Positions 15,355-34,080 of a stretch of DNA of 34,080 nucleotides are shown here, piece after piece (positions within the stretch are counted from its first letter, which is position 1; every line of letters starts with the position of its first letter). The stretch comes from a virus. Its lineage: Duplodnaviria; Caudoviricetes. A program made the position numbers and the translations under genes. The notes under the pieces are model-generated. The model had not been told where the DNA came from. It saw nothing but the letters and a program-made list of their open reading frames with translations, and made no database searches. The DNA lies in IMG/VR virus record IMGVR_UViG_3300043407_000008, positions 1 through 34,080 of that record; one strand, written 5' to 3'.

Positions 15355-15735
15355 TTACCCTAGGTCAATGTGGACCCTTATATCACCTGCAACTTGTATC
15401 TGTGATCTATCAACAGGTTTAAACCCAGCTCTATCAAGTAAATCCTTGCTAGCCTCTAGCTGAACATACTCAGACTTGGCACTCTTAGCTAAGCTTGCCA
15501 CCCTGTGAACAGCCATTGCCGCATGAGTTGCAAACGCCTCGGCTGTTACCTGCATTAGATACTGCTGCACATGTGGAGTCTTCATAGTCTTCCACGCTGT
15601 GACTCTTGCAGAATTGCCCTCAGCATATCCTGCTTCATTAGCGGCTTGCGTTAGGTTACCACCATTTGCAACATACGCTTCAACGAGGGCCTTCTGTCTT
15701 ACAGTTAGCTTACGCATATCCTGAAGTCTTTTCAT
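15355..15735 (-). CDS. terS: Terminase small subunit
   Basis: KLTVRQKALVEAYVANGGNLTQAANEAGY HTH-type N-terminus and ASKDLLDRAGFK. Confidence 0.88.
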   Translation of the reverse strand: MKRLQDMRKLTVRQKALVEAYVANGGNLTQAANEAGYAEGNSARVTAWKTMKTPHVQQYLMQVTAEAFATHAAMAVHRVASLAKSAKSEYVQLEASKDLLDRAGFKPVDRSQIQVAGDIRVHIDLG

Positions 15736-15766
15736 CTATCACTCACCCCCCCTGTCTGTCCCCCCC

Positions 15767-15795
15767 ATCTAGGCTCAGTGTCAACCTCTAGTCAA
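15767..15795 (-). promoter_or_regulatory. Sigma70-type promoter for terS
   Basis: Minus strand TTGACT-N17-CTAGAT, close to the alphaproteobacterial TTGAC-N17/18-CTATAT consensus. Confidence 0.55.
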
Positions 15796-15845
15796 TCCAT
15801 CCGTTACCATATGTGTCAGACTGTAACAAAAAGTGATGGGCCATC

Positions 15846-16444
15846 CTCCTTCGTCGGAGCGGGCTTTCGTGAACAGAGCCAGCAAGCTGTCTCTGCCGCA
15901 AGCGGCTTCAATCCCTTGTCCAAGTGATCCTCTATGATCTGATGTTCAGCAGACTTCACCGACATATGCGTGAAGGACAACCCCGCCTTCAGCGGGATTA
16001 TCTGCTCCACGCATACGTCACTTGGCCTCGTATCTGACTTGGGGCCGTCGGCTTTCGCAAGGCTTCGCGTCGACGGACAAGGATGTAACCCGCTGCGGTA
16101 TAACCATCCATCTGTGCTGCGCTACGCTTGCGATGGATAGGTTATGTCCTCGCTGTGTGGACTCTCACACACATGATCCCCCGTGGGCAGGATATCCCCG
16201 ATAGGCAGGGGGAATAATGCATCGTCAACCCCGTCCCGCCCAAGAGCGGGAGGGGTCGGCAGTTCGCGCCCTCGGTCGCCATGCTCGACGCACACGCATC
16301 CAAGCGGATGCATGTGAGTGCGTCTGCGCGTGGCTCGGTCGTTCGCCGCTATGCTGAACTGCCTTGACCATTCCCGAGTCGCAAGCGCCTCGGTGCGATT
16401 ATTCCCTGCACAAAATAGATATCCTTGGCACGGGAGATCATGTG
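15846..16444 (+). ncRNA. Large highly structured non-coding element (candidate ncRNA, leader RNA or ssDNA structure)
   Basis: More than 12 local and long-range helices forming two multibranch domains, with no credible CDS. G-U wobbles mostly favour the plus strand. Confidence 0.55.
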
Positions 16445-16468
16445 CTTGATAGAAAATGGAGAGATGTA

Positions 16469-16636
16469 ATGCACAGTATATACTGGGTTGACCTATGCGA
16501 TGGAACCGAGCGGCGTTGGTTCCCAAATAAGCGCCGCGCTAAGAAATACGGCAAGGCAATGGAACGTGCTTCAGGATTAACATGGGCTTTCTTTTATCTA
16601 ATGTGGAAACAGGAAATACCGCTAAAGAATATGTAA
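16469..16636 (+). CDS. Small early protein (55 aa)
   Basis: AATGGAGA RBS before ATG 16469; MHSIYWVDLCDGTERRWFPNKRRAKKYGK... Confidence 0.6.
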   Translation: MHSIYWVDLCDGTERRWFPNKRRAKKYGKAMERASGLTWAFFYLMWKQEIPLKNM

Positions 16637-16637
16637 T

Positions 16638-16724
16638 CCCCTAGAGGATCATTCATCTGAGTCAAGTCGACCCGCAAGCGGGCGCAGAGCGGACTTGACT
16701 CAGACGCCTGACCCTCTCTTGGGG
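16638..16724. repeat. Long inverted repeat / hairpin
   Basis: Perfect 13-bp stem 16656-16668/16692-16704 (TCTGAGTCAAGTC) enclosing CCCGCAAGCGGG, with imperfect outer arms. Confidence 0.8.
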
Positions 16725-16779
16725 CGGGCATAATAAGAAGAAACTGTAACCTCAATCAAACATCACAATGGAGAAGATC

Positions 16780-17364
16780 ATGAACACCTACGAAAATATC
16801 AGCTTGCATGACGCTATCGCACGCATCGCATCCGAGTTCAACAATCCCTACCTTGCCACAGAGCAAGACGGCACTATTGTGGAGAAGAATGCTTGGGCTT
16901 GGACACAGAAGCGTGTCATCCAGAGCATGGCTAACGCAGTCTATGCTGACCTATATGACCAGCGCACTTATACAGATGCCAAAGGTATCGCACGACCCAA
17001 GGGTCTGAAGCTACGCTATGACGCACAACTGCGCATGCTTAAGAACCTCGCTAAGAACGCAGACATGGCTAACGAGATTGATGCTCAGTCGTTGATCAAG
17101 GCTGCTGATTTCACTGAGAATCTAGAGGCCCAGCTTGAGTGCCTTGAGCTAGCCTACCACACCATGTGCAACGTCTACGAAGAGATGACAGGTGATACCT
17201 TGAAACCTTACGTTGCATGGCAAGACTACAAGTCGCAGCCTAAAGAGCAAGCGTCATCCGAGACTGCCGATGCAGCCAAGCGCGCAATGGCAAGGCTCGG
17301 CATCAAGGTCAAAGAAGGTTACTCTGCTAAGACCGATGGAGTTGATACTCCTGATGCGGAGTAA
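16780..17364 (+). CDS. Early hypothetical protein (helical, 194 aa)
   Basis: AATGGAGA RBS before ATG 16780; followed by its own terminator. Confidence 0.8.
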   Translation: MNTYENISLHDAIARIASEFNNPYLATEQDGTIVEKNAWAWTQKRVIQSMANAVYADLYDQRTYTDAKGIARPKGLKLRYDAQLRMLKNLAKNADMANEIDAQSLIKAADFTENLEAQLECLELAYHTMCNVYEEMTGDTLKPYVAWQDYKSQPKEQASSETADAAKRAMARLGIKVKEGYSAKTDGVDTPDAE

Positions 17365-17371
17365 AGAAGAA

Positions 17372-17399
17372 GAGGAGGGGCGCAAGCCTCTCCTTTTTT
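17372..17399 (+). terminator. Rho-independent terminator
   Basis: GGAGGGGC-GCAA-GCCTCTCC followed by a T-run, right after the stop at 17364. Confidence 0.85.
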
Positions 17400-17521
17400 C
17401 TTGCTACCTCGACCTGTTCCACAACGGTCGGGAGGGGGGCGCAAGGGGTTGGAACTGTCACGCCGCGCCTCGCAAGACTGACTGAAACGCTGAACAAATC
17501 AAAACCAAATGGAGAACTATC

Positions 17522-17704
17522 TTGTTTCGATTCAAGTATGATCCAGCCTACGGGCTGGCTGACGAGACACGCACTCACGCAGTCCTCGCTTCCATTGCTT
17601 ATGGAACCAAGAAGGCTGCGGAAAAGTGCAGCGTATCTACCACTGCTATCTACAAATGGCGCAATGATCTGGGCCTAATCAACAAGGAGAATACAAATGC
17701 TTGA
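17522..17704 (+). CDS. Small HTH DNA-binding protein
   Basis: AATGGAGA RBS with TTG start; TKKAAEKCSVSTTAIYKWR fits a helix-turn-helix pattern. Confidence 0.65.
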   Translation: MFRFKYDPAYGLADETRTHAVLASIAYGTKKAAEKCSVSTTAIYKWRNDLGLINKENTNA

Positions 17705-17876
17705 ATGGATCATTCGTAATGAGCAAAACCGTGATGAGTTCTGGAGTAATGATTTTGGCTGGGCTGATTGGCAGTCCGCTACGCGCTTTCCGACAACCGA
17801 CTACCGCCTTCCCATCGGTGGTGAGTGGGTTGCAGACGTAACGAAAATACTAGCAATGGAGAATACAAATGCTTGA
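17686..17876 (+). repeat. 19-bp direct repeat GGAGAATACAAATGCTTGA (17686-17704 and 17858-17876)
   Basis: Exact copies, each containing an RBS, an ATG and the upstream gene's TGA. Confidence 0.9.
17697..17876 (+). CDS. Small Trp-rich protein (59 aa), absent from the ORF track
   Basis: MLEWIIRNEQNRDEFWSNDFGWADWQSATRFPTTDYRLPIGGEWVADVTKILAMENTNA; AAGGAG RBS; coupled to neighbours at both ends. Confidence 0.75.
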   Translation: MLEWIIRNEQNRDEFWSNDFGWADWQSATRFPTTDYRLPIGGEWVADVTKILAMENTNA

Positions 17877-31279: not shown

Positions 31280-31300
31280 TGCATCAACGCACAAACCTAC
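31280..31300 (-). promoter_or_regulatory. Putative late-promoter motif upstream of the tail fibre operon
   Basis: Minus strand GTAGGTTTGTGCGTTGATGCA, 19/21 identical to 12310-12330. Confidence 0.6.
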
Positions 31301-34080
31301 CCCCTTAAAGCCTGTGCTAGTTCAGATACTTCACCCTTTATAAACCACATATTCGATAGAGGAAGCATTCTAAGAAGATCAGCAGTCCCATTGCCATAAT
31401 CTCCACTGACAACTTTAAACAAACCTTCTGCAATATTTGCAGCCCATGATGGACCAGCGCCAGCAAGATCAGTTACAACATCAAAAGCATTTTCGCGTTG
31501 CTTAAATTTTGGCTGAAGAAACCCACCAGTAATGTTGGGACCGCCAAGAGCAATAGTTGAGTGCATCGTCCGATAAAACATATCAGAGTAGAAAGGAAGA
31601 AGGCCGCTTGCATCAACAGACCTAGCCATCTTGTCTTGGAAACTCATATTGTTCCAAGTATTTTCTGGCGTCTTTATTTTGAGAACCATGTATGCAAGCC
31701 CAAGCATTGTAGCTGCACCAATGGCACGATTCTTTACCTGACCATGCGCCATTGCAGCAGCAGTTTTGTTCATAGTTCCAAAAAGAAAGTTGTAGAATTG
31801 GAATGGCAAACCGAGAAAGCCGTTCTCAATTCGAGCATACCCTTTTAGAACGGGATGTTCTTTAAAGCCAAACTTACCAGCAATGCTCATTGGCAAGTGA
31901 ACAACGCCATCAGTAATAATTGGTCGATCCGCAGGAGAACCATGAATAACGGTGTTTGTGATGCCGCTGTTTAAACCAACACGAAACCGCTCGACATCAT
32001 CAATAGTAGTTTTTTGCGCTGCTTTGTAATCAACCATAGCCAGTTCATTGATTTTGTTTTCATAGGCAACAGTATCTTTTGCGTTGATACCTAAGTCTTT
32101 TGCACTGAAACGAGAGTGATTAACCTCATGCAACATAACAAAGTTAGCCCACTGCTTGGGCGTCTTGAAGATGTCGGGCAAAGCATTAACGCCTTCTGTG
32201 CGCGGCTTTAGCCATGCCTTTCGCTGAAACATTGTGCCTTCAATGTAATCACGATCAAAGTAAATAGTATTTGTTTTCCGATTATAGTAAGCGGGAACAA
32301 CTTCACCTTTTGAGTTTGTTTTGCTTACAGAACTTCCATCTTCCATAGCCTCAATTACAGTGATGCGCTTGCCCTCAATTTCAGGAATTTCAATATGATC
32401 AGCCCACTGCTCAGTGTTTGGAAGAATTAAGCCTTCTTTGTTGCGCTGCCACGGGGCCTTAGCAAGCTTACGAGCCAATGCTTCGTCAACCCCGTGCATA
32501 GCAAGAAATACTCGGTCGCTTTGGCTAATCGTTCCGTCAACAAGACGAAGAGAGTAATCAATAAGCGTATGCCCCATAACCAACCCAGAGAGTTTTTTGT
32601 AAGCAATCGTCAATGGCGTTAAGCCATTGGCAATGTAAAACAAATGCTGGGCCGAGTTTAGAAGCTTTGGTGAAACAAAGTTATTACTAACTTGGCTTTC
32701 AAGCCGCAACATACCATGTGTATATTCAAGCGCAGAACCAGATAGCTGTGTCTCTAAACCAGATTGGCGAAGGGTATCCATGTCAATCATAGACTTGACG
32801 CCCTTCATCATTGGCCCCAATTCATATTGCATAACAATACGGCCAAAATCTGGAATTGAAGATAGACCAGCGCCACCCATAAAGGTAAGGCCCGCTAGAG
32901 TCCGAAGCCCATAGGCAATTTTTTGGTTTAGCGCATCTGGGTTATCCAAGACATTGCTAACTACACGACGATACAACGAATCAAAATCTCTGCGCATTGC
33001 ATTGATCTCAGCATCACTTGCCCCAGCGCGGAGCATATCTAATTCCATCTCAGTTCTAACGCCATTGTAGTCTTTGCCAAACTTTTCTTGGAACAAAGCG
33101 CGAGGACGAACCCGTGCATTGTAAGAAGCAAGAACGGAAACAGGATTTGTTTCAACGTAGTCAATAATTGCAGATGTTGGAATATCTAAGTTCCGATGGC
33201 GAAAATGCTTAGAGCGACCAAGACCAGCAACAACATCGCCAGACTCTACCGCATCACCCTCAGACAGTATTTTATTGGTTGTCGACTCAGCGCGTTTGCG
33301 AAGTTCTACTGGATCAGTGCTAAGTTTTACAAGAACATAGTCGCCAGTTTCATAATTGAAATCATAGACATACGGTTTTTTTTCAAACTCGCGCATAAGG
33401 ATTTTAATGAAAGCTTCACGATTTGCTCTGATCTTATCAAGCTTAAAAAAACGGGCAAAGAATGGTTCAGCTTTTGGTTCTACATTTGCTGCATCAATAG
33501 CCGCTTTAGCGCCATCAATGCGCGTCCGAAGCGCATCAATTGCTTCTGACAGCGTATCCATTGCTTGTGCCATTCGCGGCGTAACATCAAGGATATCCTT
33601 GAGTGCAATGAGATCATCTACTGATTTTGCTGCTTTAAGCTTTGCAATCAAGTCTTTAAACTCAGCAATGGTTTTTTCATTGTCAGGAAGACGAGCATTA
33701 ATGTCTTCGTATAGTTTTTTCTGTTTTGCAGTCAAACCTTTTGATTTGTATAGAGCATCAAGCCTATCAAAGATGGGGCGATCTTTCTTAACTTTGGCGT
33801 CAAGATAGGTCATTGTCTTAGTCATCCATGTCTTGTTCCAAGAAGTAATGTCAGTCATTACGCTTTCGTATTCAGCTAGTTTAGCTGGATCGTTAAGAGC
33901 AATCCTAACAATTCCATCAGCATCTTTTTTCAAATCATCAATACGAGCATCAATGATGTCAATCTCGCGATCAGTTGCATCAATGCGACGAGTAGTCAAA
34001 GCATCAATCTCTTGATTGATAATTCTAATTTTGTTTTCACGACCACGCGCTGTAGCAATCAAACCCAAGTCTTCTAGGTT
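31297..34080 (-). CDS. Large internal virion (ejection) protein, C-terminal part; open at the right edge
   Basis: The frame is open to 34080, so TTG 34068 is probably not a start. GLSSIPDFG, IANGLTPLT and LPFQFYNF motifs resemble podovirus gp16-like proteins. Precedes the tail fibre gene. Confidence 0.8.
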   Translation of the reverse strand, partial: NLEDLGLIATARGRENKIRIINQEIDALTTRRIDATDREIDIIDARIDDLKKDADGIVRIALNDPAKLAEYESVMTDITSWNKTWMTKTMTYLDAKVKKDRPIFDRLDALYKSKGLTAKQKKLYEDINARLPDNEKTIAEFKDLIAKLKAAKSVDDLIALKDILDVTPRMAQAMDTLSEAIDALRTRIDGAKAAIDAANVEPKAEPFFARFFKLDKIRANREAFIKILMREFEKKPYVYDFNYETGDYVLVKLSTDPVELRKRAESTTNKILSEGDAVESGDVVAGLGRSKHFRHRNLDIPTSAIIDYVETNPVSVLASYNARVRPRALFQEKFGKDYNGVRTEMELDMLRAGASDAEINAMRRDFDSLYRRVVSNVLDNPDALNQKIAYGLRTLAGLTFMGGAGLSSIPDFGRIVMQYELGPMMKGVKSMIDMDTLRQSGLETQLSGSALEYTHGMLRLESQVSNNFVSPKLLNSAQHLFYIANGLTPLTIAYKKLSGLVMGHTLIDYSLRLVDGTISQSDRVFLAMHGVDEALARKLAKAPWQRNKEGLILPNTEQWADHIEIPEIEGKRITVIEAMEDGSSVSKTNSKGEVVPAYYNRKTNTIYFDRDYIEGTMFQRKAWLKPRTEGVNALPDIFKTPKQWANFVMLHEVNHSRFSAKDLGINAKDTVAYENKINELAMVDYKAAQKTTIDDVERFRVGLNSGITNTVIHGSPADRPIITDGVVHLPMSIAGKFGFKEHPVLKGYARIENGFLGLPFQFYNFLFGTMNKTAAAMAHGQVKNRAIGAATMLGLAYMVLKIKTPENTWNNMSFQDKMARSVDASGLLPFYSDMFYRTMHSTIALGGPNITGGFLQPKFKQRENAFDVVTDLAGAGPSWAANIAEGLFKVVSGDYGNGTADLLRMLPLSNMWFIKGEVSELAQALRG

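Follow-up and report, generated by a model that had tools for sequence, protein, structure and literature searches.

Large promoters in single-stranded DNA (ssDNA) are established in conjugative plasmids, whose DNA arrives single-stranded, and the minus-strand origin of M13 has a hairpin anatomy. Tailed phages, to our knowledge, are assumed to deliver double-stranded DNA (dsDNA) and to use ordinary promoters at the start, coliphage N4 with its own polymerase being the exception. The plasmid promoters, Frpo/ssi, belong to the leading regions of F, ColIb-P9 and pESBL and are described as classes 1-3 in the relevant parts of PMC9849209, PMC12672017 and PMC11541004. According to section 2.3 of PMC13037366, GCGAAGC and GCGAAAGC motifs are the most stable DNA mini-hairpins, and GNA alone among 64 triloops compared gives a DNA mini-hairpin; the same section gives melting at 39 C for r(GCGAAAGC) and at 76.5 C for the DNA counterpart.

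The locus described here lies in a tailed-phage genome. The window, which is the whole stretch of DNA analysed, is a 34,080-bp virus record with a folded element at the junction of its early and late genes. From sequence comparison, the chance seems to us about even that one part of this element, domain B, is a promoter existing only in folded minus-strand ssDNA, or a priming site, for the first early gene.

Genome setting and folding of the junction element

As seen in Table 1, the element stands between two divergent gene blocks. The 49 open reading frames (ORFs) scanned form a tailed-phage gene set. Leftward from the terminase small subunit gene (terS) lie the late genes, with terL and the genes for portal, capsid, tail and internal virion proteins; from 16469 onward the genes for early functions and replication are read rightward, among them DUF932, a resolvase, a replication initiator and a RecE-like exonuclease. 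The labels "podovirus" and "early" were deduced from gene content and layout. No match to an RNA or DNA polymerase or to a relaxase was found among the 49 ORFs (PHROG, Pfam), nor one to a primase among the phage ORFs (PHROG), and a 1098-aa protein carries no annotation. For the 198-aa early protein, an Atlas search returned scores below 0.9 and no usable lead. DUF932 was also considered as a plasmid leading-region family, and the main text of PMC11541004 does not mention it. Among cultured phages, Pelagibacter phage EXVC031P Hodr is nearest (terL 65%, terS 46%). The open frames that run off both window ends (1-1125 and 31297-34068) probably belong to a single internal-virion-protein gene, the genome being circularly permuted; an end repeat was not seen in the window.

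Table 1. Coordinates of genes and structural parts around the junction
Feature	Position	Strand	Basis or remark
Terminase small subunit (terS), first late gene, reads away from element	15355..15735	-	PHROG 51/2538, Pfam PF03592
TTGACA box with a pair of G-tracts, immediately before terS	15745..15784	-	sequence
Module 1 of domain A, branched, begins with tandem G.A / C-GAA-G hairpin	15845..15916	-	19 distinct relatives
Inner stem-loop of domain A	15920..16025	-	folding; largely kept in L003/L004
Stem with GCGAAGC and GCGAAAGC mini-hairpin caps	16045..16076	-	sequence; replaced in L003/L004
Separate hairpin with GC-GNA-GC loops	16100..16145	-	GTA in window, GAA in L002/L003/L004
Domain B, a candidate promoter in ssDNA; multi-branch fold, conserved	16162..16452	-	26 homologues, covariation, DNA z -9.7
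-10-like hexamer GATATC (most relatives: GACAAT)	16191..16196	-	pairs with 16418-16423
Putative small hairpin looped from spacer, 2-3 bp stem, 4-nt loop	16198..16205	-	
-35-like box TTGACG, non-template-like arm	16223..16228	-	pairs with 16364-16369
Tandem G.A hairpin looped from template-like arm, beside -35 duplex	16374..16393	-	
Ribosome-binding site of 55-aa ORF	16458..16463	+	sequence
55-aa first early ORF, predicted first target	16469..16636	+	no PHROG match
Hairpin C, GTCAA/TTGAC stem, two mini-hairpin caps, precedes 198-aa gene	16643..16717	-	
198-aa early protein, function not assigned	16768..17364	+	no PHROG/Pfam match

A sequence-only reading had described 15846-16444 as a densely paired non-coding element. 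All eight helices for which it gave coordinates are present as written, and the inner motifs were all found in the region. Compared with dinucleotide shuffles, the segment folds better than 100 of 100 on both strands, with RNA fold z-scores of -6.80 (plus) and -9.22 (minus) and DNA fold z-scores of -6.43 (plus) and -8.71 (minus). In 300-nt DNA windows, domain B reaches -5.4 on the plus and -9.7 on the minus strand, beyond all 14 control windows spread over the genome (+1.1 to -3.7), and domain A reaches -3.6 and -5.0, respectively. The two closing helices of domain A exist as sequences, but they cannot both form fully because bases 15920-21 belong to both; the GGACAAGG partner of a closing helix is also missing in the near-identical relatives L003 and L004. 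The assignment to no known family agrees with Rfam, which gave 0 matches at E<=1 in the window; on 12 homologue loci, 3 sub-threshold hits were obtained, none of them inside domain B. Four short ORFs overlap the region, yet a coding role is unlikely, as had been claimed, since relatives carry non-triplet indels and exchanged modules across it.

The feature also reaches further than the segment first delimited, as the 55-aa ORF and the related hairpin C follow. Hairpin C occurs in 7 distinct versions, most of them with GNA triloops on the minus strand. It was considered as a second promoter of the same geometry and rejected, because no consistent A..T hexamer could be seen by inspection despite the TTGAC stem. 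On the other side of the element, the G-tract pair and TTGACA box may be an ordinary late promoter or a packaging signal. In many relatives, paired C-tracts and a GTCAA box precede terS by about 10-65 nt, and G-tracts are present at the junction of a second phage group too.

Several variants of the junction were observed. Between 15846-16468 of the window and the relatives L003, L004 and L002, whole modules have given way to unrelated sequence, which is about as long and still folds, and the flanking genes of these near-identical phages are 90-100% identical. A bulged helix of the GCTGTTAACC type recurs in otherwise unrelated modules in the upstream regions of L004, L008, L013, L074 and L171. 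A second element type is a long rod in which the first early gene supplies one arm, with its ribosome-binding site and initial codons; it was found in L007 (upstream 1-650), in the terS-upstream regions of L008, L033, L010 and L013, and in Hodr. L007 carries the rod although its terS region is 98.6% identical to that of the window. Farther into the early genes, 17365-17868 contains intergenic hairpins (DNA z -2.4/-2.9), a 19-nt direct repeat (17686, 17858) that spans ribosome-binding site and start, and a 60-aa ORF with a weak repressor-like match. Additionally, L109 and L117 represent a terS relative present twice, about 32 kb apart, on one 64,971-bp metagenome contig, which is probably a doubled assembly.

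Conservation, covariation and strand of the fold

Searches with terS and the first gene gave at least 164 loci, the terS scans covering the best 80 matches each, and two pattern scans gave 48 and 63 loci; many of the 63 were discarded for want of the partner arm. Requiring both arms gave 80 loci, which leave 26 distinct homologues of domain B after removal of near-duplicates and truncated loci. They come from uncultured aquatic phages and can be divided into two phage groups. Group 1 has terS and terL of the window type and no family A polymerase (2 of the 5 records tested); Group 2 is without window-type terS and terL and has a family A polymerase (3 of the 5). In the Group 2 record examined, the capsid protein is 70% identical to HTVC023P. 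Module 1 of domain A is common to both groups. An early-protein search returned no cultured Group 2 member with the element, and blastn against cultured phages gave no match to the window region or to L168. Among 72,556 plasmids, blastn of domain B gave one 27-nt match (E 0.9) inside a coding region, taken as chance, and the one pattern match in bacterial genomes is a coding-like stretch of Streptomycetaceae in which the partner arm is absent.

The conserved frame, read on the minus strand, starts with an outer stem, the A..T hexamer and a small looped-out hairpin. These are followed by an 11-12-bp helix with a conserved bulged C and a tandem-G.A hairpin with a conserved unpaired GAA, and then by the TTGAC/GTCAA duplex, whose halves are 66 to 273 nt apart depending on inserts, and a junction with a GC-GNA-GC loop and the inserts. 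Covariation was scored on 24 homologues, which have a median identity of 59% and form 12-21 clusters at 75-90% identity; of the 26, L214 and L247 were left out because their inner helix could not be placed. In this set 97.5% of 526 cells are paired, whereas 500 shuffles gave 82.0+/-1.0 and slid controls 25-45%; because the frame structure was derived from the same sequences that were scored, these figures are not probabilities. Two-sided changes occur in 12 of the 22 pairs of the domain B frame, a count that overstates independence since the homologues are akin; the compensatory changes that the earlier reading had asked of homologues are present. The TTGAC pairs are nearly invariant and several spacer pairs show three or four Watson-Crick types, as expected for a box plus a free spacer.

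The first reading had taken G-U pairs as a sign of selection on the plus strand. The RNA minimum-energy folds contain 8 G-U pairs on the plus strand and 17 on the minus strand, and the 16-bp stem of domain B has a single mismatch, C.A when read on plus and G.T when read on minus. Within Watson-Crick helices present in folds of both strands, the 1x1 mismatches on the minus strand include 28 G.T versus 6 A.C (4 and 4 in shuffles), as well as 32 G.A and 18 C.T. Loops were counted in 26 sequences and 200 shuffles. C-GNA-G triloops number 74 on the minus strand versus 24.8+/-5.2 in shuffles (maximum 42), and 18 versus 15.8 on the plus strand; they are more numerous on minus in 20 sequences and on plus in 3. 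Tandem G.A hairpins show the same direction (minus 56 versus 13.1, plus 2 versus 5.8). Of the RNA-type tetraloops, neither cGNRAg (20 versus 14.6) nor cUNCGg (5 versus 4.4) is enriched on the minus strand. The enrichment of cUNCGg on the plus strand, 17 versus 6.0+/-2.4, speaks against the minus-strand reading; of the loop sites, 12 can be read either as a triloop or as UNCG, 62 as the minus triloop alone and 5 as UNCG alone. The second loop of module 1, read on minus in 19 relatives, is GNA in 15 (GAA 8, GTA 4, GGA 2, GCA 1), GTAA in 3 and another sequence in 1; all four N are seen, and taken alone this loop is also compatible with a plus-strand UNCG.

A wider view of the junction was also taken. 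At 71 distinct loci, the region 120-420 nt upstream of terS has z < -3 in 37 (plus) and 42 (minus), compared with 3 and 5 in the terS coding sequence control. Folding energy shows no strand bias in this wider terS group (minus lower in 39 of 71, and in 45 in the coding control), and hairpin loops on 4-bp stems at 43 terS-group loci gave no clear loop class. In L009, L089 and L149, domain A is pyrimidine-rich on the plus strand and bears abundant tandem G.A and GNA motifs on minus; standard models give it z of about 0 on minus and of +2 to +3 on plus. Such near-zero or positive z despite the motifs indicates that standard folding would miss elements of this kind. The contigs of two RNA-labelled runs lie on terS or late small genes and none lies on the element; these are contigs only, and one run is probably DNA, so that this absence carries no weight.

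Mismatch types, loop types and folding energy favour the minus strand, and we are highly confident that the element was selected as a minus-strand fold. Of the earlier interpretation, a selected non-coding single-stranded structure at the early/late switch is retained and plus-strand selection is not; therefore, the plus-strand ncRNA and early-transcript leader that had been proposed are unsupported. The third proposal, a folded ssDNA element, fits best, the loops being of DNA type and not of RNA type. In DNA, both tandem G.A pairs and C-TT-G loops form stable structures. Judging from the loop sequences, the minus-strand fold probably acts as DNA.

Proposed promoter signature and competing explanations

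Early genes use the minus strand as their template. TTGACG is found on the 3' arm of the minus-strand fold, and the variants TTTACG and TTAACG change together with their partner; conservation of this -35 box is partly circular because the search patterns and the filter required it. The A..T hexamer was part of neither collection search pattern. Its A2 is present in 26 of 26 homologues and its T6 in 25, and positions 1, 3, 4 and 5 vary, with mostly G in place of T at position 1. In sigma-70 -10 boxes, no bases are more conserved than A2 and T6. On the partner strand A2 and T6 occur in about 7 of 24, in rough register, and the background rate is 4.7%. The window is the one exception without T6 and the least typical member. 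In 12 further loci, several of them near-duplicates, A2 and T6 are kept in 11, and the twelfth looks like a false match.

The distance between the boxes in dsDNA is 26-32 nt on minus and 29-63 on plus, and A2/T6 lies 16-18 nt after the -35 box in 0 of 26 (minus) and 2 of 26 (plus). In the predicted folds the spacing is 16-25 paired positions in 22 of 26 and 16-19 in 11 of 26, with 4 misfolded, and the spacer without the small hairpin measures 16-23 nt. This modelled spacing, not a clean 17, is the weakest link of the promoter reading. The ribosome-binding site and start codon follow about 40-60 nt beyond the second box, and 37-78 nt (median about 50) past the outer anchor in 22 of 26, some being anchored too early. 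A conserved ordinary promoter was not found: matches occur in 7/26 and 4/26 for the two directions, compared with 9.3 and 8.2 expected, in a scan with the E. coli consensus, which may not be that of the host.

If domain B is an ssDNA promoter, the minus strand would turn single-stranded early in infection. We know of no ssDNA stage in these phages; a gapped genome end, 5'-to-3' resection of a leading end or strand displacement are possible routes, all of them guesses. The exposed strand, presumed to be DNA in vivo, would fold, and its 3' arm, running toward the stem base, would serve as non-template strand. Looped-out side hairpins may bring the -35/-10-like boxes to a usable distance, and host sigma-70 RNA polymerase would then bind the fold and transcribe outward into the first early gene. 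The fold possibly primes second-strand synthesis too, which would turn the folded promoter off, an effect that has been reported for Frpo. Domain A, together with the variable inserts, could act as exchangeable nuclease-resistant modules that keep the strand protected or SSB-free, a role suggested by parts of PMC13037366. It is our tentative view, held at somewhat less than even confidence, that two widespread groups of tailed dsDNA phages expose the early template strand as long ssDNA when infection begins, with a modular DNA-folded split sigma-70 promoter and swappable mini-hairpin modules.

The folded minus-strand ssDNA might instead be a replication, packaging or end-protection signal and not a sigma-70 promoter, for example a site for primase or a phage protein, a place of concatemer-junction processing or a block to resection. 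This is unlikely in our estimate, although not negligibly so. The strand and loop evidence would be identical; the element adjoins terS, in a phage without polymerase or primase match and with a RecE-like exonuclease and a replication initiator, and mini-hairpins occur at the G4 and ssiA priming sites in the passages of PMC13037366 on these. Contig ends are somewhat enriched on the element side, with 18 of 158 in the first 200 nt versus 9 of 157, but duplicates are included in these counts and there is no sharp terminus or peak. A signal of this sort alone leaves the A2/T6 hexamer, the TTGAC box and the fixed short distance to the ribosome-binding site unexplained, and the element is also present in phages with their own family A polymerase and a different terminase.

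A structured RNA from the minus strand is a rather improbable reading; such an RNA could be an ncRNA standing alone, a decoy that mimics a promoter, or the leader of the late (terS) transcript. The RNA fold z of -9.2 agrees with this reading; G.U pairs, tandem G.A pairs and G-CUUG-C loops occur as RNA motifs too, and a conserved core with modular inserts is typical of large ncRNAs. It is opposed by the enriched minus-strand loops, which are GNA triloops and not GNRA or UNCG, and by the absence of an Rfam match. It also requires a leftward promoter within the variable early genes, where a 9/12 match is found in 4 of 26, scattered.

A plus-strand RNA, either an ncRNA or an early leader that opens the first transcript and serves RNase III processing or translational control, is very unlikely: the plus fold z of -6.8, the excess of cUNCGg (17 versus 6) and the pairing of ribosome-binding site and first codons in rod-type variants speak for it, but mismatches and loops are biased toward minus, domain B is closed upstream of the ribosome-binding site and a conserved upstream plus-strand promoter is absent. 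An unselected by-product of inverted duplications or recombination, to which the swapping of whole modules between near-identical phages could point, is hardly credible and is largely refuted by covariation at 59% median identity; bulges are conserved and loops are strand-specific as well.

A DNA-type fold that covaries on the template strand of the early genes in two groups would mean that this strand passes through a single-stranded stage. If the ssDNA promoter reading is true, tailed-phage infection would include a single-stranded step that has gone unrecognised and has its parallel in plasmid conjugation, and the elements would be a natural family of functional, structured DNAs that covary as RNAs do. 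The first wave of expression would be self-limiting, and there would be a bearing on the encounter of phages with host nucleases. The element can be tested at small scale, as a 300-nt oligonucleotide whose boxes and whose start site, near 16429-16432, are predicted. It would also serve as a warning that screens for phage ncRNAs by covariation can return structured DNAs; counting GNA triloops against GNRA and UNCG loops per strand is a simple way to separate structured DNAs from ncRNAs.

Comparison with known single-strand elements

Among phages, the early promoters of coliphage N4 share with the element single-strand hairpins with GNA triloops upstream of early genes in a tailed phage, as given in parts of PMC13037366. 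The N4 promoter described there is a short 5-bp hairpin used by its own 3,500-aa virion polymerase, whereas the element here is about 300 nt long, with sigma-70-like boxes and no polymerase match. Folded ssDNA for RNA primer synthesis is a further likeness, seen with mini-hairpins at the G4, ST-1 and alpha3 origins and ssiA (PMC13037366, in part) and at the M13 minus-strand origin (PMC7948647, in part). Those genomes have an obligatory ssDNA phase; the present fold belongs to a 34-kb tailed phage and faces a gene start.

Pelagiphages of the HTVC010P type resemble the window in having early and late regions on opposite strands and no RNA or DNA polymerase, and the parts of their description available in PMC8477408 do not mention a structured element. 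Hodr, with its 65% identical terL, has a long fold-back at the same junction; it is a rod pairing the first ribosome-binding site and not domain B (L277:2620-2850). In searches of the open-access literature, no such element was found reported in these phages.

The Frpo/ssi promoters share more of the proposed architecture. As far as the described parts of PMC9849209 and PMC12672017 extend, the predicted fold of domain B matches Frpo geometry: both are large stem-loops of the template strand with -35/-10-like boxes on the facing arm, directly upstream of the first-expressed genes (here judged from layout). Frpo is not expected to work as dsDNA, and the consensus scan is consistent with the same for domain B. 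Domain B differs in having no sequence similarity to known Frpo/ssi elements (blastn against plasmids), in its multi-branch form with swappable inserts, and in boxes 26-32 nt apart on the arm, so that looped-out hairpins are required. Frpo/ssi belong to conjugative elements and domain B to tailed dsDNA phages, for which ssDNA entry is not known and the promoter role is putative. By analogy, domain B would be Frpo-like in its proposed working, and it stands outside Frpo by sequence and by its non-conjugative setting.
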